Of a DNA stretch of 7,364 bases, positions 1 through 7,273 are shown in pieces. The stretch spans positions 1 through 7,364 of the forward strand of contig JBAWVI010000048.1 in the NCBI GenBank assembly GCA_037147375.1, in the 5' to 3' direction. The number at the start of each line of letters is the position of its first letter. Within the stretch, counting starts at the first letter, position 1. Made by a program: the position numbers and the translations under genes. The stretch comes from an archaeon. GTDB taxonomy: Archaea; Iainarchaeota; Iainarchaeia; Iainarchaeales; CSSED10-239. The notes under the pieces are model-generated. The model did no database searches and had not been told where the DNA came from. It saw nothing but the letters and a program-made list of their open reading frames with translations.

Positions 1-711
1 AATACCTGAGGAAACAATTCGAATCCTTACATAGTCATTTTTGATTTTAGCAATCAATTGCGATGCAAAAGAGTTATACAAATAAGTTTTGGTTGAAATT
101 TTTGATTTGATAGTTTCAGTTTCATTTTCCAACTGCTGTATTTCTTCAGCTAATTTCTGCATAGCCAATTTCTTATCAGCAATTAATTTAATATTACTAT
201 CAATATTAGCATTTTTCTTATTAATATCAGCGTCAAATACCAATTTTCTATCATTTTCAATGATATTAATAGCATCTGTTAATGCAATTGAAAGTGCTTC
301 TTTAGTAACACCTTTCTTTTTCATAAAAGAAAACGCCATCTTAAATTTATTGGCTTCTGGAAGTGTTGGATCAGTTTCTATAACTGTGTGATCAAATCCA
401 CCAAGGTCTGCTTTACCCCAGTTACCTATAGCGTGAACTGTTAAGCTCTTTGGTTTAATTTCTCCAAGAGTTGAATGCTTAGATAAAAATATTATTTGAT
501 TAATATCAAGATCTGGTTCAATTACTTCTTCTTCCTTTGAAAATATATGCATGGAATCTATTACTTTAACATAAATTTTATTTATTGAACCACTTAAAAC
601 AAGTTCAAACACTTTATCTTTAATTTTTTCTAATTTATATTTAGTAAATAATACTTCCTTAAAGTTTAAAGAAGCAGGATCTTGATTTGAAACAATTATT
701 AAAAAATTCAT
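1..711 (-). CDS. Partial CDS: N-terminal 237 codons, with the 3' end beyond the window start. The N-terminal ~110 aa tentatively resemble archaeal-type D-aminoacyl-tRNA deacylase (DtdA/PF04414-like). A Lys/Glu/Asn-rich probable coiled coil follows.
   Basis: My own translation of the reverse complement from ATG at 711..709 is open for all 237 codons to position 1: MNFLIIVSNQDPASLNFKEVL...FLSKHSTLGEIKPKSLTVHAIGNWGKADLGGFDHTVIETDP...KLAMQKLAEEIQQLENETETIKSKIS...VRIRIVSSGI. The segment SKHS-x9-LTVHAIGNWGKADLGG matches my recollection of the DtdA core motif (H-x-T-G-N-W-G-x-A-x-x-G-G). The downstream HHGP-type motif expected in DtdA is not present. The + strand ORF 89..391 is its antisense shadow. 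The CDS itself is well supported; the family call is tentative and from memory. Confidence 0.6.
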   Translation of the reverse strand, partial: MNFLIIVSNQDPASLNFKEVLFTKYKLEKIKDKVFELVLSGSINKIYVKVIDSMHIFSKEEEVIEPDLDINQIIFLSKHSTLGEIKPKSLTVHAIGNWGKADLGGFDHTVIETDPTLPEANKFKMAFSFMKKKGVTKEALSIALTDAINIIENDRKLVFDADINKKNANIDSNIKLIADKKLAMQKLAEEIQQLENETETIKSKISTKTYLYNSFASQLIAKIKNDYVRIRIVSSGI

Positions 712-835: not shown

Positions 836-1186
836 ATGATATATATATCTAATACAATGTTTCCATTAAGAATTGATAGAAAATCCAAGGAACATATTCA
901 ATTTGAGGTTTCTTTAAAAAGTCAAAACTCATTAAGTAAACTAATTTCATATGAAATTATTTTTCCTGAAGGGCTTGCAATGGAAAAAGGTCAAAAAAAT
1001 ACTCAAATATATAAGCTTGGAGAAATGAAAGCTGATGAAACTAGAATATTTAAGTATAAATTAATGCCAACAAGCTATTTAGGTGAAGGATCTATTCAAA
1101 TAATTGTAAGAGCTTATGAGCATTTAGGTTCATATGATCAATTAGAACAAACAACAGAAAAAATTATTACAATAAGAGTTGTTTAA
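836..1186 (+). CDS. Hypothetical small protein (116 aa), predicted beta-rich, with no recognisable family
   Basis: ORF with a strong SD (GGGGGAG, 6-nt spacer) and a TAA stop. Alternating polar/hydrophobic patterns (IQFEVSLKS, ISYEIIFPEG, TRIFKYKLMP, GSIQIIVRAY, KIITIRVV) suggest an Ig-like or beta-sandwich fold. No signal peptide or TM segment is seen. Confidence 0.65.
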   Translation: MIYISNTMFPLRIDRKSKEHIQFEVSLKSQNSLSKLISYEIIFPEGLAMEKGQKNTQIYKLGEMKADETRIFKYKLMPTSYLGEGSIQIIVRAYEHLGSYDQLEQTTEKIITIRVV

Positions 1187-1240: not shown

Positions 1241-1798
1241 ATGCCTTATAGAAAACTTCCAACAGTTCTTCCAAAGAAACTTAGAGAAAAGGGAATTACT
1301 TTAGGAGAAATTAGAAGAAAAACTAATTCTATAATTGAATCAGATAGATATCAATTAAAGCTTGGAAAAGCACAAGGATTTCAAAGTGCTGAACCTTTTG
1401 CAGAGCTTATAGATAAATTAAAAAAGCTTAATGAAAGAATTAAGAATGAAAAAAACTTATTTAAGAAAAAAATGTTTAATTCAGAATTAACTAGAACTAA
1501 AATTGATGTTAATTTACTTAATTTTCAATCAACTATCTACTTTTATATTACATTTGGTGCTGAAAAAAAGCTAGTTTCAACTAAAATGTTTGCGGAGATT
1601 GAACATAATTCAGATCAAATAAGAAATAATCTTAATCATTGTATGGAATCAGGAGTAATGTCTGAAAGTAAGATATATAATCTTTCAAAGGATTTAGTTA
1701 ATAGAATTAGTAAAGCTAAATTTACAGACTTTAATGAAGTTAATGAATATCTTAAAAAGAAGGTTTGGGAAACTGAGCTTTTAAAAAAAATAAATTAG
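1241..1798 (+). CDS. Hypothetical protein (185 aa), Lys-rich, predicted helical, with no recognisable family
   Basis: ORF preceded by AAGGAG (1229..1234, 6-nt spacer) and ending in TAG. It lies 10 nt upstream of tmk. No motif I can assign. Confidence 0.65.
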   Translation: MPYRKLPTVLPKKLREKGITLGEIRRKTNSIIESDRYQLKLGKAQGFQSAEPFAELIDKLKKLNERIKNEKNLFKKKMFNSELTRTKIDVNLLNFQSTIYFYITFGAEKKLVSTKMFAEIEHNSDQIRNNLNHCMESGVMSESKIYNLSKDLVNRISKAKFTDFNEVNEYLKKKVWETELLKKIN

Positions 1799-1808
1799 TG
1801 ATTTTTAT

Positions 1809-2495
1809 ATGATAGAAGGAAAACTAATTGTTATTGATGGAACAGATGGTTCTGGTAAAGCAACACAGGTTAAGCTTCTTAAAGATAAATTATTAAGTGA
1901 AGGTTATTTAGTAGAAACAATTGATTTCCCACAATATGGACAAAAATCAGCTGGACCAACAGAAGATTATCTTTCTGGGAAATATGGATCTCCTGATGAA
2001 GTTGGAGCATATAGAGCATCTATTCTTTATGCAGTTGATAGATATGCTGCTTCTTTTAAGATGAAAGAATGGCTTCTTGAAGGAAAGATAGTTATTTGTG
2101 ATAGATATGTTTCTGCAAACATGGGACACCAAGCAGGAAAGATTTCTGATCTTAGGGAAAGAGATAAATATCTTGATTGGTTATTTGATTTAGAATTTAA
2201 TATATTCCAAATCCCTAAACCAAATATTAATATTTTCTTATATCTTGATCCAGTTATAGCTAGAAGACTTGCACAAGAAAACACAAGTAATAAGTTTACA
2301 AATGAAGTTAAGAAGAATGATATTCATGAAAAGGATCCAGAACATATGAAAAAAGCAAGTGAATCATTCAAGTATGTTGCTGATAAATATAAATGGATAA
2401 CTATAGATTGTTCAGATAAGCAAGAGAATGCAGGAATTAAAACAAGAGAAGAAATATCAGAAGATATCTATAATAAAGTTAAGGGGTTACTTTAA
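1809..2495 (+). CDS. tmk: Thymidylate kinase (dTMP kinase), M. tuberculosis-like subtype
   Basis: 228 aa. P-loop LIVIDGTDGSGKATQ. FPQYG-x-S...YL-GKYG segment. DRY motif (ICDRYVSANMGHQ). LID-like region ...NDIHEKD. The architecture parallels M. tuberculosis TMPK (GAGKRT P-loop, FPRYG, LDRYVASN). The TAA stop at 2493..2495 abuts the glyA ATG at 2496. Confidence 0.9.
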   Translation: MIEGKLIVIDGTDGSGKATQVKLLKDKLLSEGYLVETIDFPQYGQKSAGPTEDYLSGKYGSPDEVGAYRASILYAVDRYAASFKMKEWLLEGKIVICDRYVSANMGHQAGKISDLRERDKYLDWLFDLEFNIFQIPKPNINIFLYLDPVIARRLAQENTSNKFTNEVKKNDIHEKDPEHMKKASESFKYVADKYKWITIDCSDKQENAGIKTREEISEDIYNKVKGLL

Positions 2496-3721
2496 ATGAG
2501 TTCTTCAAAAGAAATATTTGATCTTATTAAAAGAGAAGAAGAAAGACAACAAAATACAATTGAAATGATTGCTTCTGAAAATATTACTTCAAAAGCTATT
2601 AGAAAAGCTTGTGGTTCTGTTCTTACAAACAAATATGCTGAAGGATATCCTACAAGAAGATATTATTCTGGGTGTGAAAACGTAGATAAGATTGAACAAA
2701 TTGGAATTGATTCTTGTAAGAAACTATTTAAATCAAGTTTTGCAAACATTCAACCTCATTCAGGATCAAATGCAAATGAAATTGCTTATTTTTCTTGTCT
2801 TGAACCAAAAGATAAGATATTAGGTATGTCACTTGATGCTGGTGGGCACTTAACTCATGGTTATAAGATTAATTTTTCAGGAAAAATCTATGAATCTAAT
2901 TTTTATGGAGTAGGAATTGATGGTTATCTTGATTATGATGTAATTAGAAAGCAAGCTCTTGAGATTAAACCAAAATTAATTATTGCAGGAGCATCAGCGT
3001 ACCCAAGAAAAATTGATTTTTCTGAGTTTAGAAAAATTGCTGATGAATCAGGAGCACTATTAATGGTTGATATGGCTCATATTGCTGGGCTTGTTGCAAC
3101 AAACCTTCATCAATCACCAGTAACCTATGCAGATATTGTTACATCAACTACACATAAGACACTTAGAGGCCCTAGGGTGGATTTATTATTACAAATAATG
3201 AAGAAAGAAGTAAAAAAATTGATAAAGCTTGCTTTCCTGGTTTCCAAGGTGGACCACTTGAGCATATAATTGCAGGAAAAGCAATTTGTTTTAGAGAAGC
3301 AAGCAAGCCAAGCTTTAAAAAATATCAAAAGCAAGTTCTTTTAAATTCTAAAACCTTAGCTAATGAACTTTTATCACATGGTTTTAATCTTGTGACTGGT
3401 GGAACAGATAATCATCTTCTTTTAGTTGATTTAAGACCTAAAGGAGTTACAGGTAAAGAAGGAGAAGCACTTCTTGAGAAGTGTGGAATTTCAGTTAATA
3501 AGAATGCAATTCCAAATGATCCACAACCACCAATGATTGCATCTGGAATAAGGATAGGAACTCCAGCAATAACTACAAGAGGAGCAAAAGAAGAGGATAT
3601 AAAGGTTATTGCAAAATATATTAATGATATACTTACAAATAAGGATAATGATGTGCTTCATCAAAAAATAAAGCAAGAAATTATAGAATTGTTAAAAAAG
3701 TTTCCAATAAATAAAATTTAA
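2496..3721 (+). pseudogene. glyA: Serine hydroxymethyltransferase. As sequenced, the reading frame is broken by a 1-nt (-1) frameshift at the GGG run 3175..3177. This is either a true pseudogene or a sequencing/assembly indel.
   Basis: Frame 3 (2496..3176) gives a canonical SHMT N-terminal part: [70 protein letters not shown], and the PLP-lysine motif [12 protein letters not shown]. It then drifts into non-homologous text ([10 protein letters not shown]...) until a stop at 3269. Restarting at G3176 in the -1 frame gives [42 protein letters not shown]...LVTGGTDNHLLLVDLRPKGVTGKEGE...IRIGTPAITTRG, open to TAA 3719..3721. Joined, this restores the invariant [10 protein letters not shown] motif and a ~408-aa protein. 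The track ORF 3392..3721 is only the tail of this second frame. Confidence 0.85.
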
Positions 3722-3738: not shown

Positions 3739-4341
3739 ATGCCAGGTAAAATAAAGAGTCCAATCTTATTAATGACAAGAAAGAAATTAGAAAGAACAAA
3801 AACAAATGCAATAAAGGAACATCAAAAGAAACTCAAAGAAATTAAAGAATCTCAAACCTATCAAAACAAAAAAGCAAATGTAAGTGAATCTAAAGAAAGT
3901 ATAGCTTTTTCAACTTTAAAACATGATCTTAGTAGAATAAATGCATCCTTAAAAAAACAACCAAAAGGTTCAGCATTATATTCTCAATTATCAAATAGTA
4001 AAAACATTGTAGAAAGTGCAATAAATATAATGAATTTACGTATGAGAGTTAATCATTATAGAAAAGGATATATTGAAGAACATCATCCAGAAATAGAAAA
4101 TATATTTAGTGCAAAGTTTTCACTTCTTTTATGTAATATTACTACATATCAAGAACATAAATCTTACGCTGAAGTAAATACGTTTGTTAAAAAAACTATG
4201 ATTGAATTTAATAATTTCGAAAAATCACTTAAATCAAAATTAATTAGTAAAGATGTATCTGAAAATAAACTAAGAGCATTTGAATTACTTAGTGGTTTTG
4301 TGGATTCTAAGAATAAAGAAATTGTAAGGCTAATTAAATAA
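3739..4341 (+). CDS. Hypothetical protein (~200 aa), Lys/Ser/Asn-rich, predicted helical, with no recognisable family
   Basis: The track ORF starts at GTG 3730. ATG 3739 is better placed relative to the SD AAGGTGAT (3727..3734). TAA stop at 4339..4341. Sits between glyA and the DNPH1-like gene. No assignable motif. Confidence 0.65.
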   Translation: MPGKIKSPILLMTRKKLERTKTNAIKEHQKKLKEIKESQTYQNKKANVSESKESIAFSTLKHDLSRINASLKKQPKGSALYSQLSNSKNIVESAINIMNLRMRVNHYRKGYIEEHHPEIENIFSAKFSLLLCNITTYQEHKSYAEVNTFVKKTMIEFNNFEKSLKSKLISKDVSENKLRAFELLSGFVDSKNKEIVRLIK

Positions 4342-4361: not shown

Positions 4362-4799
4362 ATGAAAAATATATATTTTGCTGGTTCAATTACTGGAGGA
4401 AGGGATGATGCTCCTGTTTATGCAATATTAATTGAATACCTTAAAACTAAAGGTAAAGTACTAACAGAACATATTGGTAGTAGTAGTATTTTAGAAAAAG
4501 GTGAAGAAAACTCTAATGAAGGCACAAAAATGTCATTTGAAGATATATACCTTAGAGATATAGATTGGATAAAAGAAGCAGATATATTAATTGCAGAAGT
4601 TACAAAACCATCTCTTGGAGTTGGTTATGAGCTTGGATTTGCAGAAAAACTAAATATTCCAATAATTTGTTTATACAGAGAAGATGAAACAAATAAAGAT
4701 AAGAGATTATCTGCAATGGTTGATGGAAATAAGTACAATATTGTAATAAAATATAAAAATATTAATGATGTTATCTTACAATTAGATAAATATTTATAA
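4362..4799 (+). CDS. 2'-deoxynucleoside 5'-phosphate N-hydrolase (DNPH1/Rcl-like; nucleoside 2-deoxyribosyltransferase superfamily)
   Basis: 145 aa, alignable end to end with mammalian DNPH1/Rcl as I recall it. IYFAGSITGGRDD matches YFCGSIRGGRED. GKVLTEHIG matches GTVLTEHVA. DIDWIKEADILIAEVTKPSLGVGYELG matches DLEWLQQADVVVAEVTQPSLGVGYELG. RLSAMV matches VLSAMI. The equivalents of the Rcl catalytic residues (Tyr in YF-GS, Asp in D-x-x-W, Glu in GYELG, Ser in LSAM) are all present. An SD-like AAAGGA lies upstream. Confidence 0.85.
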   Translation: MKNIYFAGSITGGRDDAPVYAILIEYLKTKGKVLTEHIGSSSILEKGEENSNEGTKMSFEDIYLRDIDWIKEADILIAEVTKPSLGVGYELGFAEKLNIPIICLYREDETNKDKRLSAMVDGNKYNIVIKYKNINDVILQLDKYL

Positions 4800-4813
4800 A
4801 GAGGAGAAAAATT

Positions 4814-5680
4814 ATGAAAGCATATCTTGATATAATACAGAAAATCTTGGACAAGGGAGAACTTAAACACAATAGAACAGGTGTTGATACGCTTGCTATT
4901 GCTGGAGCTATGTTCGAACATGATATGCAAGAAGGTTTTCCTGTTCTTACAACTAAGAAAGTTCCTTTTAGATTAGTTGCTTCAGAACTTGAGTTTTTCA
5001 TAAAAGGAATTACAGACAAAAAATGGTTACAAGAAAGAGATAATCATATTTGGGATGAATGGTGCTGTCCTGATAACGTTCCTTATGGACATGATGCAGA
5101 AACTAAAAAGAAAATGCTTGAAGAAAGAGAGCTTGGGCCTATTTATGGATGGCAATGGAGAAATTTTGGAGCAAAATATCAAGCTTTTGATAAAGCACCA
5201 TTAGGAGAAGGTGTTGATCAACTTAAAAATGTAGTTAATAAGCTTAAATCAGATCCAACTGATAGAAGAATGATTGTTTCAGCATGGAATCCACATGATA
5301 TTAAACATATGGCTCTTCCTGCTTGTCATTATGGATTTCAAGTAACAGTTATTAATGATAAACTTAATTTATTATGGAATCAAAGATCAGTTGATTCTGC
5401 TCTTGGTTTACCATTTAACATTGCAAGTTATGGATTATTACTTCATCTTCTTGCAAAGGAAGCTGGACTTAAGGAAGGTAAGTTAATTGGTTTTTTAGGA
5501 GACACACATGTTTATGTTAATCATATTGATGGACTTAAAGAACAACTTGCAAGAGAAACATATAAATTACCAACAATTGAAACTAGTGATTTTAAATCTA
5601 TATTTGATTGGAAATATACAGACACTAAATTAATAGATTATAAAGCTCAACCAACAATTAAGTTTGAGATTGCAGTTTAA
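4814..5680 (+). CDS. thyA: Thymidylate synthase, ThyA family. All canonical TS residues are present, but dUMP hydroxymethylase-type chemistry cannot be excluded from sequence alone.
   Basis: 288 aa. Motifs seen: NRTGVDT; FPVLTTKKVPF; SELEFFIKG; IWDEW; LGPIYGWQWRNFGA; DRRMIVSAWNP; catalytic Cys in MALPACH (Cys171, nt 5324..5326); QRSVD; GLPFNIASY with the uracil-specifying Asn (Asn202, nt 5417..5419); GDTHVYVNH; C-terminal PTIKFEIAV. SD GAGGAG at 4801..4806. Confidence 0.9.
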   Translation: MKAYLDIIQKILDKGELKHNRTGVDTLAIAGAMFEHDMQEGFPVLTTKKVPFRLVASELEFFIKGITDKKWLQERDNHIWDEWCCPDNVPYGHDAETKKKMLEERELGPIYGWQWRNFGAKYQAFDKAPLGEGVDQLKNVVNKLKSDPTDRRMIVSAWNPHDIKHMALPACHYGFQVTVINDKLNLLWNQRSVDSALGLPFNIASYGLLLHLLAKEAGLKEGKLIGFLGDTHVYVNHIDGLKEQLARETYKLPTIETSDFKSIFDWKYTDTKLIDYKAQPTIKFEIAV

Positions 5681-5694
5681 ACAAAGGTGTGATT

Positions 5695-6165
5695 TTGAGA
5701 GAGATAATAATTATTGTTGCAGTTGCAAAGAATAATGTAATTGGTAAGGATAATAAGATACCTTGGCATATTTCTGATGATTTTAAGCATTTTAAGGAAT
5801 AAACCTTGAATAATCCAATAATAATGGAAAAGAATACATATCTTTCTTTACCTAAAAGACCACTTCCCGAAAGGGAAAATATAATTCTAACATTTTTAGA
5901 TGATTCTTTTAATGATCCAGGAATTACAATCAAGCATTCACTTAAAGATGCTCTTGAGTACACAGGAAATAAAGATGTTTACATTATAGGTGGAGCAAGC
6001 GTATACAAGCAAGCAATAGAGCTTGCAACAAAACTTGAAATTACAAGTATAGATAAAAAATATGATGGAGATACTTTTTTTCCTGAAATTAATTTAGATA
6101 TTTGGAAATTAATTAAAGAAGATAAGAGAGAAGGTTATTCATTTCAAACATATATAAAAAAATAA
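5695..6165 (+). pseudogene. folA: Dihydrofolate reductase interrupted by one in-frame TAA (5800..5802) with no frame change. This is a pseudogene, a sequencing error or a read-through candidate.
   Basis: Same-frame translation from TTG 5695 (SD AAGGTG at 5684..5689; alternative GTG start at 5689) gives (M)REIIIIVAVAKNNVIGKDNKIPWHISDDFKHFKE*TLNNPIIMEKNTYLSLPKRPLPERENIILT...VYIIGGASVYKQAIE...DKKYDGDTFFPE... This aligns colinearly with E. coli and B. subtilis DHFR (VIGxxNxxPW, D-x-x-x-FK-x-x-T, IMGRxT, PLPxRxNIVL, IGGxxVY, GDxxFP). The TAA falls at a variable position (FKR-N-T in E. coli, FKK-I-T in B. subtilis). The track ORF 5806..6165 is only the distal part. Confidence 0.8.
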
Positions 6166-6178
6166 GTGGTGAAAATTT

Positions 6179-7273
6179 ATGATTATTGGATTAACTAGTT
6201 TTCTTTCTGCTGGAAAAGGCAGTGTTTGTGAATTTTTAAAAATTAAAGGATATCAAGTTTATTCTTGCTCAGATATTATTAGAGAGGAATGTAATAATAG
6301 AGGTATTGAACTTACAAGAAAAAATTTACAAGACGTTGGTAACGAGCTTAGAACTAAGTTTGGTCCAAATATACTTGCGATTAGATTATCTGAAAAAATA
6401 AATAAAGATATTACTAAAAATTATGTTGTAGACTCTATTAGAACACCAGCAGAAATTGAAGAATTAAGAAAGTTACCTAATTTTGCTCTTGTGTTTCTTG
6501 ATGCTGATTCTAAAACAAGATATGAAAGAGCTAAGATTAGACTTAGAGAAAAAGAAAATGTAAATAGTTTTGATGAGTTTATGCTTTCAGAGAAAAGAGA
6601 ACTTGAAAGTAAGGATCCAAACTCTCAACAATTATTGAAATGTAAAGAACTTTCAGAGTATACTTTAAGTAATAATGGAACAATAGATGAGCTTCAAGCT
6701 CAAGTTGATGAACTTTTAGTAAAACTACAAGTTAAATTTAAGAAAAAAATGAATTGGGATGAATATTTTATAAATATTGCAAAAGATATTTCAAAGAAGT
6801 CAACTTGCATGTCTATGTATGTTGGTGCTGTAATAACTAAGAATAATACAATTTTAAGTACAGGGTATTCAGGAGCACCAAGAGGAACAAAAGATTGTTT
6901 TGAATGGGGTTATTGTTTTAGAAGAAAAAATAATATTAAATCAGGAACTAAGTTTGAATTGTGTGCTTCGGTTCATGCAGAACAAAATGCAATAATTAAT
7001 GCTGCAAGACAAGGAACAAGTATAGTTGATGGAACTCTTTATCTATATGGAGAAATAGCATATCAAGCACAAAACAAGATAACAGATATATTTCCTTGTT
7101 TTATTTGTAAGAAAATGATAATAAACTCAGGTATTGTTAGGGTAGTTTGTTCAAAAGCAGATGGAACATTTGTTGCTTTTGAAGTTAAAGATTGGATTAA
7201 TGATTGGAAAGAACATAGTTTATTAGAAGACACGGTTGGATATGGAACAAACTATAATCAAAATATCAAATGA
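6179..7273 (+). CDS. Fusion protein: an N-terminal P-loop nucleotide/dNMP-kinase-like domain (~aa 1-185) joined to a C-terminal dCMP deaminase (ComEB/Dctd-type, ~aa 191-364)
   Basis: C-terminal half: NWDEYFINIAKDISKKSTC, VGAVITKNNTILSTGYSGAPRG, zinc motifs HAEQNAI (aa 266-272) and PCFICKKMI (aa 306-314), SGIVRVV. N-terminal half: MIIGLTSFLSAGKGSVCEFLK...SCSDIIREEC..RGIE.TR.NLQDVGNELR..FGPNILA resembles small archaeal/phage dNMP-kinase or UPF0200-like kinases (GxTGxxGSGKS/DT...). It carries an atypical Walker A (S-F-L-S-A-G-K-G-S). SD GGTGA at 6168..6172; TGA stop. Confidence 0.85.
   Translation: MIIGLTSFLSAGKGSVCEFLKIKGYQVYSCSDIIREECNNRGIELTRKNLQDVGNELRTKFGPNILAIRLSEKINKDITKNYVVDSIRTPAEIEELRKLPNFALVFLDADSKTRYERAKIRLREKENVNSFDEFMLSEKRELESKDPNSQQLLKCKELSEYTLSNNGTIDELQAQVDELLVKLQVKFKKKMNWDEYFINIAKDISKKSTCMSMYVGAVITKNNTILSTGYSGAPRGTKDCFEWGYCFRRKNNIKSGTKFELCASVHAEQNAIINAARQGTSIVDGTLYLYGEIAYQAQNKITDIFPCFICKKMIINSGIVRVVCSKADGTFVAFEVKDWINDWKEHSLLEDTVGYGTNYNQNIK

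Follow-up and report, generated by a model that had tools for sequence, protein, structure and literature searches.

A gene for a predicted DNPH1-type nucleotide N-glycosidase in the thymidylate operon of a clade of archaea

Why should a gene for an enzyme predicted to destroy deoxynucleotides lie in an operon that makes thymidylate? The question is raised by a stretch of archaeal DNA, contig JBAWVI010000048.1, analyzed here over its whole length of 7364 bases (G+C ~28%) and called the window below. In it, a gene for a 145-aa homologue of mammalian DNPH1 (Rcl), a 2'-deoxynucleoside 5'-monophosphate (dNMP) N-glycosidase, stands directly upstream of a gene of the ThyA family. Our analysis indicates that the protein is a clear member of the DNPH1 family with one clade-specific active-site change, and that its gene keeps company with the genes of dTMP synthesis, above all the dTMP kinase gene tmk, in all sampled species of the archaeal clade to which it belongs. 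What is known already is DNPH1 and its fold relatives; the linkage to thymidylate genes appears to be undescribed, if conceptually unsurprising.

The earlier note on this DNA, made from the sequence alone, had recognized the open reading frame (ORF) by four DNPH1/Rcl signatures, and all of them are present: YFAGSITGGRDD at residues 5–16, VLTEH at 33–37, AEVTKPSLGVGYELG at 78–92, and LSAM at 116–119. The family assignment made there is borne out by profile and structure searches. The protein matches Pfam PF05014 with an E-value of 1.2e-14 (54.9 bits, cutoff 28.8), and among solved structures it finds rat Rcl at E 2.8e-27 and human DNPH1, with which it shares 41% identity, at E 3.2e-25. An AlphaFold2 model built from 43 homologues (mean predicted confidence, pLDDT, 85; predicted template-modeling score, pTM, 0.82) returned only DNPH1/Rcl chains among its top 50 Foldseek matches in the PDB, with TM-scores of 0.72–0.82. 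Only residues 40–53 of the model are of low confidence, and in the human enzyme their counterpart is the mobile “shielding loop” (PMC10603095).

The roles of the active-site residues of human DNPH1 toward 5-hydroxymethyl-dUMP (hmdUMP) have been described by Rzechorzek et al. (PMC10603095). Y24, D80, and E104 form the catalytic triad; S98 and S128', the latter from the helical extension of the partner subunit, bind the phosphate; I29 and I76 clamp the base; and the LTEHV motif supplies E55 and H56, which contacts O2 (PMC10603095). In our alignment Y24, I29, E55, H56, and I76 correspond to Y5, I10, E36, H37, and I62 of the window protein, and D80, S98, E104, and S128' to D66, S84, E90, and S117. 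Most of these functional residues are invariant across 26–43 homologues: the triad Y5/D66/E90 in both alignments, the phosphate-pocket serines S84 (PSLG) and S117 (LSAM), and the run L34-T35-E36-H37. The window protein thus shares with human and rat DNPH1 the fold, the triad, the phosphate serines, the LTEH motif, and the hydrophobic base clamps; it differs in lacking N- and C-terminal extensions, in having Thr (Ser in sister species) in place of Arg30, and in being encoded in a predicted polycistronic dTMP operon of a small archaeon. We assign it to the DNPH1 type, in family and in chemistry, with very high confidence, and regard it as a prokaryotic, orthologue-level relative of DNPH1.

Apart from a minus-strand gene at its left end, the window holds a single plus-strand array with spacers of ~0–55 nt, and no tRNA genes were found in its 7364 bases. 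Its features are as follows.

1–711, minus strand: partial archaeal-type D-aminoacyl-tRNA deacylase (PF04414), cut by the left edge of the window and deduced from the gene called in L001 (L numbers denote the loci compared)
836..1186, plus strand: orf116, operon head, a conserved 116–117-aa protein with no match in Pfam or NCBIfam
1241..1798, plus strand: orf185, a Lys-rich, probably helical orphan with no match in Pfam or NCBIfam
1809..2495, plus strand: dTMP kinase, Tmk (PF02223, E 7e-19)
2496..3721, plus strand: serine hydroxymethyltransferase (SHMT), interrupted; PF00464 matches both pieces
3739..4341, plus strand: orf200, a Lys-rich orphan specific to the lineage and encoded just 5' of the DNPH1-like gene, with no match in Pfam or NCBIfam
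4362..4799, plus strand: predicted DNPH1/Rcl-type 2'-deoxynucleoside 5'-monophosphate N-glycosidase, 145 aa (PF05014, PDB, Foldseek)
4800..4813, plus strand: 14-nt spacer with a Shine-Dalgarno-like GAGGAG (4801–4806) for thyA, read from the sequence
4814..5680, plus strand: thymidylate synthase ThyA, 288 aa (PF00303, E 1e-95)
5695..6165, plus strand: dihydrofolate reductase (DHFR) with an in-frame TAA at 5800–5802 and G45E (PF00186)
6179..7273, plus strand: P-loop kinase-like domain (residues ~1–185) fused to a dCMP deaminase domain (~190–330) (PF13207/PF13238 + PF00383)

The 14-nt gap given in the earlier note, with a Shine-Dalgarno sequence for thyA, is exact: the stop codon of the DNPH1-like gene ends at 4799 and the ATG of thyA begins at 4814. 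The description of the array as one of thymidylate and folate genes stands insofar as Tmk, SHMT, DHFR, and the deaminase fusion are all there; it needs amending in that SHMT is frameshifted and DHFR carries an in-frame TAA.

ThyA itself is, by its sequence, an ordinary, bona fide thymidylate synthase (TS). It scores 296.7 bits against the NCBIfam TS equivalog TIGR03284 (cutoff 108.35) and matches solved TSs in the PDB at 2.9e-73. Aligned with Escherichia coli ThyA, the dCMP hydroxymethylase gp42 of phage T4, and the dUMP hydroxymethylase gp29 of phage SPO1, it is 45% identical to the first and ~25% identical to each of the other two; identity to a Bastille-type phage TS is 43%. It keeps NRTG, IWDEW, GPIYGWQWR, DRRMIVSAWN, PACH, QRSVD, PFNIASY, and GDTHVYVNH, with equivalents of Cys146, Asn177, Trp80/Trp83, Tyr94, Arg126/127, and His207/Tyr209, and it ends in ..EIAV where E. 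coli ThyA ends in ..PVAI; T4 gp42 and SPO1 gp29 diverge from it in most of these motifs and in their C termini. The earlier proposal that the Asn of PFNIASY marks a dUMP-type enzyme is upheld by Asn177 in this alignment. On the comparison with gp42 and gp29 as a whole, the reading of ThyA as a hydroxymethylase is rejected. T4-type phage records match the window ThyA only through td and not through gene 42, and a 42.6% match to phage SBSphiJ3, considered as a possible SPO1-type dUMP hydroxymethylase, was set aside because this is a Bastille-like phage, of a group that carries a true TS and DHFR. TS, but not dUMP hydroxymethylase, produces dihydrofolate (DHF) and needs DHFR (PMC4528723). A DHFR gene lies 14 nt downstream of thyA in the window and in all relatives, and because DHFR and SHMT are in the same operon, ThyA is best taken as a DHF-producing TS.

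Is the association with dTMP genes more than an accident of one contig? The window protein belongs to an archaeal clade of which we sampled eight species, with DNPH1-like (Rcl) proteins 55–80% identical. In all eight the gene lies among the genes of a dTMP operon, whose order takes at least six forms. A bacterial-type contig, L097, is listed last for comparison.

Window and L007: Tmk-SHMT-orf200-Rcl-ThyA-DHFR-(kinase+dCMP deaminase)
L010: SHMT-Rcl-Tmk-ThyA-DHFR-DCD
L094: SHMT-Rcl-Tmk-ThyA-DHFR
L095: Rcl-Tmk-SHMT-ThyA-DHFR-DCD
L096: SHMT-Rcl-Rcl2-orf-Tmk-ThyA-DHFR-DCD
L103: SHMT-Rcl-PurA-Tmk-ThyA-DHFR
L104: Rcl-Tmk-SHMT-ThyA-DHFR
L097 (1–3670), a contig of Candidate Phyla Radiation (CPR) type: NUDIX-HD-Tmk-Rcl-NUDIX-dUTPase

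The survey of related genomes that the earlier note had called for thus shows conserved linkage, in 8/8 species, and not the loss of adjacency that the note had named as a refutation. The most constant partner, however, is Tmk and not ThyA; the module is conserved, and the placement of the gene beside thyA in the window is one of the forms it takes. The gene usually abuts or overlaps tmk, the overlap being of 4 nt in L010, L095, and L097. Between the window and L007, ThyA is 98% identical and Rcl 76–80%. In L096 a second, degenerate PF05014 paralogue (6420–6824) directly follows the DNPH1-like gene; its catalytic GVGYELG has become GVGYLIN, with loss of the nucleophilic Glu.

A wider scan, with one genome per GTDB species, covered 80 loci from many phyla. 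A tmk, thyA, dhfr, or shmt gene lay within 7 kb of the DNPH1 homologue in 10 of them, eight from Saccharibacteria or Paceibacterota and two from metagenome-assembled genomes (MAGs) labeled Bdellovibrionales; none of these four genes was found near the Bacteroidota, Verrucomicrobiota, Desulfobulbia, and haloarchaeal loci of the scan. Unsupervised clustering of the ORFs within 3 kb gave Tmk (7 loci), dUTPase (7), SHMT (5), two NUDIX families (5 and 4), CYTH (4), and arginyl-tRNA synthetase (ArgRS; 4) as the commonest neighbors, nearly all in CPR bacteria. By a rough estimate that assumes a ~1-Mb genome, and for loci that are not phylogenetically independent, chance would place a given gene within 3 kb at ~0.5 of 80 loci. 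Conservation between species, and through rearrangements, puts the adjacency far beyond chance. The CPR homologues of Saccharibacteria and Paceibacterota, 45–55% identical to the window protein, share its active site and recurrent Tmk linkage, often with SHMT, ThyA, and DHFR as well; they differ in keeping Arg30 and in having dUTPase and NUDIX house-cleaning genes more often than ThyA as partners. On the CPR-type contigs L097, L017, L040, L054, L057, L069, and L080, the DNPH1 homologue clusters with Tmk, dUTPase, and one or two NUDIX genes, together with a CYTH or HD protein and ArgRS, in a compact nucleotide house-cleaning neighborhood. Our literature searches found no report of DNPH1 homologues in thymidylate operons or in Tmk–dUTPase–NUDIX clusters, in keeping with the earlier remark that the arrangement was not known to be described.

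What could a DNPH1-type enzyme do there? In human cells DCTD deaminates hmdCMP to hmdUMP, DTYMK phosphorylates hmdUMP toward hmdUTP, and DNPH1 hydrolyzes hmdUMP and so blocks its incorporation into DNA, the hmdUMP being made by DCK and DCTD (PMC13184875). A CRISPR screen with 5-hydroxymethyldeoxycytidine (5hmdC) accordingly returned Dck, Dctd, and Dtymk as sensitizers and Dnph1 as a resistance gene (PMC10305735). The operon encodes counterparts of DCTD, DTYMK, and DNPH1, namely the kinase-like/dCMP deaminase fusion, Tmk, and the DNPH1 homologue, so that the dCMP deaminase and dTMP kinase that flank DNPH1 in the human pathway recur here as linked genes. We propose that the gene is co-transcribed with a dC-to-dT branch in which the kinase–dCMP deaminase would convert dCMP to dUMP, ThyA dUMP to dTMP, and Tmk dTMP to dTDP, with DHFR and SHMT serving the folate cycle. 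5-Substituted dUMPs might come from oxidation, or from modified dCMPs of salvaged DNA once the deaminase has acted on them. The DNPH1-like enzyme would hydrolyze such non-canonical or aberrant nucleotides, with hmdUMP as the model substrate. By analogy, the reaction would pass through a covalent Glu90–deoxyribosyl-5-phosphate intermediate; Tyr5 and Asp66 would be the other members of the triad, and the phosphate would be bound by Ser84 and Ser117'. Their removal would precede Tmk and keep them out of the dNTP pool, canonical dUMP being spared for ThyA. Human DNPH1 acts on 5hmdUMP at 52,380 and on dUMP at 27 M-1 s-1 (PMC10483697); with this ~2000-fold preference, an enzyme of the DNPH1 type need not drain the dUMP of ThyA. 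To such a role, a monophosphate-level gatekeeper beside dTMP synthesis, we give a probability of about 0.5. It looks like pool clean-up and not like a new hydroxymethyl-pyrimidine pathway, and of three alternatives put forward in the earlier note it is the first, pool sanitation near dTMP synthesis, that the comparative evidence favors. Family membership, the conservation of the active site, the identity of ThyA as a TS, and the conserved linkage are shown by the comparisons above; substrate preference, physiological role, and co-transcription are what we infer here.

Several points weigh against it. Rat Rcl was first described with activity on purine dNMPs. The substrate is extrapolated from mammals, and that these archaea encounter 5-hydroxymethyl-pyrimidines is an assumption of the model. 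The linkage demonstrates a functional association with thymidylate metabolism and not sanitation as such, and for most homologues in other phyla, at 70 of the 80 loci, there is no dTMP-gene linkage. The active site, too, departs from the human one at one position. Human R30, held by D73, reaches O4 of hmdUMP by way of a water molecule, and R30A is ~6-fold slower (PMC10603095); in rat and human enzymes this Arg–Asp pair (R19–D62, R30–D73) closes the active site (PMC12884076). In the window protein Arg30 is replaced by Thr11 and the Asp73 partner is not alignable; members of the archaeal operon clade all have Thr or Ser at the site. Base preference could differ for this reason. In a neighbor-joining tree of 118 homologues, Thr or Ser at this site marks a single clade, that of the window, and Arg is kept in 63 of the 65 genome-representative homologues, from many phyla, in which the site could be read. 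The idea that the replacement is tied to the dTMP-operon context was rejected, as dTMP-linked CPR homologues keep Arg; the change is a mark of the archaeal clade and not of operon context.

The strongest competitor to the gatekeeper role, in our view unlikely, is a general one in dNMP catabolism or as an overflow valve: a glycosidase of low specificity would convert surplus or scavenged dNMPs, purine ones included, to base and deoxyribose 5-phosphate (dR5P) for carbon, energy, or pool balance, and the operon position would reflect shared regulation with DNA-precursor genes. Much of the nucleotide supply of CPR bacteria and DPANN archaea probably comes from salvage, which would suit such an enzyme, as would the wide occurrence of homologues in free-living bacteria without dTMP linkage (the 70/80 loci). 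DNPH1 does slowly accept canonical dNMPs (PMC10483697). Yet DeoC, DeoB, and other deoxyribose-catabolic genes are not among the recurrent neighbors at the 80 loci, the very high conservation of the active site from archaea to human argues for a specific substrate, and it would be futile to express a dNMP hydrolase of no specificity together with ThyA and Tmk.

More doubtful still is base exchange, in which the covalent intermediate would pass dR5P from a salvaged purine dNMP or dCMP to uracil or thymine and so yield dUMP or dTMP for ThyA and Tmk, a salvage shortcut where there is little de novo deoxynucleotide synthesis. DmtZ of Z-genome phages, a natural DNPH1-like enzyme, combines hydrolysis of dAMP with transfer of dR5P to the Z base, and a Dut-like gene adjoins its gene or forms a fusion with it (PMC12884076); rat DNPH1 carries out methanolysis with retention of configuration (PMC10483697). 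In the archaeal clade, moreover, the Arg–Asp lid over the base site is missing and the gene sits where dUMP and dTMP are consumed. DmtZ resembles the window protein in its DNPH1-like fold acting on a dNMP and, in its linkage to a dUTPase-family gene, resembles the CPR relatives. It differs in having a Trp lid, Asn77 for the Asp of the triad, and a place in a viral base-replacement program (PMC12884076), whereas the window protein keeps Asp66. A search of 50,697 phage genomes with the window protein gave only one marginal match (E 3e-3), and Arg is retained by the CPR homologues that share the linkage. Mammalian Rcl is reported to lack transferase activity. At similarly long odds, the Arg30-less archaeal clade as a whole may be a natural phosphodeoxyribosyltransferase, or else a specialized proofreader coupled physically and functionally to Tmk. 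If so, base swaps on salvaged dNMPs would feed dUMP and dTMP, or the substrate pool of Tmk would be edited, and salvage-dependent cells could make thymidylate despite the decay of ThyA, DHFR, or SHMT seen in several lineages.

The public annotation, in which NCBI and JGI name P0001 and its relatives “nucleoside 2-deoxyribosyltransferase,” would have the enzyme exchange bases between deoxynucleosides. We regard this as very improbable, although such enzymes (NDTs, classes I and II) belong to the same superfamily and Pfam family, PF05014, and share the covalent Glu mechanism. The best NDT among solved structures (7m5h) reaches only E 1e-3, a marginal similarity beside ~1e-27 for DNPH1, and NDTs act on nucleosides and lack the serines of the 5'-phosphate pocket (PMC10603095), which are invariant here.

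Less probable again is a route of the MilAB/BcmAB kind, the second alternative of the earlier note, in which the ThyA homologue would hydroxymethylate a pyrimidine nucleotide and the glycosidase free the 5-hydroxymethyl-pyrimidine. Pairs of a ThyA homologue and a PF05014 hydrolase do occur in the biosynthesis of mildiomycin and bacimethrin, and the likeness to the CMP or hydroxymethyl-CMP N-glycosidases MilB/BlsM/BcmB with the hydroxymethylases MilA/BcmA, a PF05014-fold hydrolase gene beside a ThyA-family gene, is what had suggested it. The window ThyA is, however, an ordinary TS by its equivalog match, its motifs with Asn177 and ..EIAV, and identities of 45% versus 25%, and an ordinary TS is what the earlier note had itself named as grounds for refutation; DHFR and SHMT, the former of which hydroxymethylases do not need (PMC4528723), are in the operon; and the context is not one of antibiotic biosynthesis. 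MilB has Phe at the Tyr24 site (for ribose), Glu at the His56 site (for cytosine), and no extension Ser (PMC10603095), where the window protein has the DNPH1 residues Tyr5 (for deoxyribose), His37 (for uracil O2), and Ser117 of the helical extension. MilB was not found among its solved-structure matches at E ≤ 0.01.

The remaining proposal of the earlier note, a viral or defense enzyme that depletes a canonical dNMP during infection, can be practically dismissed: breakdown of dAMP is known from phage DmtZ and enzymes related to it (PMC12884076) and the deaminase fusion weakly resembles an anti-phage dCTP deaminase model (105 bits versus a cutoff of 400), but the locus is stable and syntenic across species, the window protein has only two weak matches in IMG/VR besides the one marginal phage match, and the surroundings are cellular. 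An archaeal MAG contig, GCA_964445425.1, is 99.5% identical to the window over 6.9 kb and also encodes elongation factor 2 (EF-2), the archaeal-type D-aminoacyl-tRNA deacylase (DTD2), and a DXR-like gene; PyrBI lies near the locus in close relatives, and relatives of the window carry a Woesearchaeota annotation. We take the locus to be part of a cellular genome and not of a virus.

DNPH1 is a current cancer drug target whose physiological substrate was recognized only in 2021, and to our knowledge its role outside mammals is essentially unstudied. The linkage described here, in thymidylate operons of DPANN-type archaea and beside Tmk, dUTPase, and NUDIX genes of CPR bacteria, is independent comparative evidence that the family acted ancestrally in the pyrimidine dNMP branch, after dCMP deamination and before dTMP phosphorylation. 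It also offers a simple prokaryotic system for testing the DCTD–DNPH1–DTYMK logic, as one operon holds all three gene types, and it corrects the public annotation. Finally, it suggests a way in which salvage-dependent ultra-small cells may exclude the modified bases of scavenged DNA from their genomes.

The folate-dependent genes of these operons carry lesions. Rcl and Tmk are intact in every locus, a stability that we count in favor of the gatekeeper role; ThyA, DHFR, and SHMT are damaged in several. In the window, SHMT has a 1-nt deletion near 3175–3178 that splits it into frames 2496–3269 and ~3176–3721 (CCT AGG GTG GAT in place of CCA AGA GGT GGA in L007, a 76%-identity relative in which SHMT is intact at 408 aa); the break falls just after the pyridoxal-phosphate lysine motif HKTLRGPR. 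The split is probably real, because four other assemblies of the species (L001, L002, L003, and L006) share it. L010 and L011 have an independent +1 frameshift in an A8 run ~50 nt downstream of the window's break. No positive evidence was found for a programmed frameshift in SHMT: CCT AGG GTG of the window fits no slippery pattern known to us, and the frameshift of L010 is at another place. The DHFR gene, intact in L001–L005, is disrupted in the window only, by a TAA (5800–5802) where the others have TTA; the window also has G45E in the conserved MGKNT motif, H40N, E122K, and S133N. Its six private DHFR changes are all to A, five of them non-synonymous, and all 15 of the window-private substitutions downstream of position 365 fall within 5801–6699. 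In L094 (7127–8485), from a sister species, both genes are hit: DHFR has an in-frame TGA where other loci have GGA, and ThyA, besides a C-terminal frameshift, has an in-frame TAA in place of TTA. Stop-codon recoding was considered for the DHFR TAA and rejected, since TAA terminates neighboring genes, relatives have TTA, and the stops of L094 (TAA, TGA) are at other sites; the in-frame stops are point lesions. The lesions may be errors of assembly; if they are not, folate-dependent dTMP synthesis is decaying repeatedly in symbionts that depend on salvage.

The other genes of the array vary in their conservation. At the operon head, orf116 is 59–68% identical to same-position ORFs in L007 and L095, and L103 has a 117-aa ORF without a Pfam match in that position. 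orf185 is 41% identical to a 185-aa ORF of L007 over ~100 aa, and orf200 has just two homologues among 5.8 billion proteins; both encode fast-evolving, Lys-rich helical proteins. Tmk matches NCBIfam TIGR00041 and NF005923 under their cutoffs. The 364-aa product of 6179–7273 finds dCMP deaminases (2hvv, 4.5e-16) and the AdkA-like protein 3lw7 (1.6e-8) in the PDB, and its kinase domain is AdkA-like/UPF0200. DCD-type deaminases take the place of the fusion in L010, L095, and L096; in relatives, its operon position is held by a 355-aa or a 174–179-aa DCD-type deaminase. In the species of the window a PF08713 (AlkD-like, “DNA alkylation repair”) gene is apparently absent, L002 running from the deaminase into an Ion_trans_2 gene; one lies 3' of the dTMP operon in L007 (12860–13573), L010 (11537–12244), L094 (8493–9200), and L096 (9969–10682). 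Just upstream of the operon, L001 (4396–5550), L007, L095, and L103 have a gene resembling that for 1-deoxy-D-xylulose 5-phosphate reductoisomerase (PF02670, the DXR-like gene above). Archaea as a rule use the mevalonate route, so a DXR-like gene in an archaeal context is unusual.

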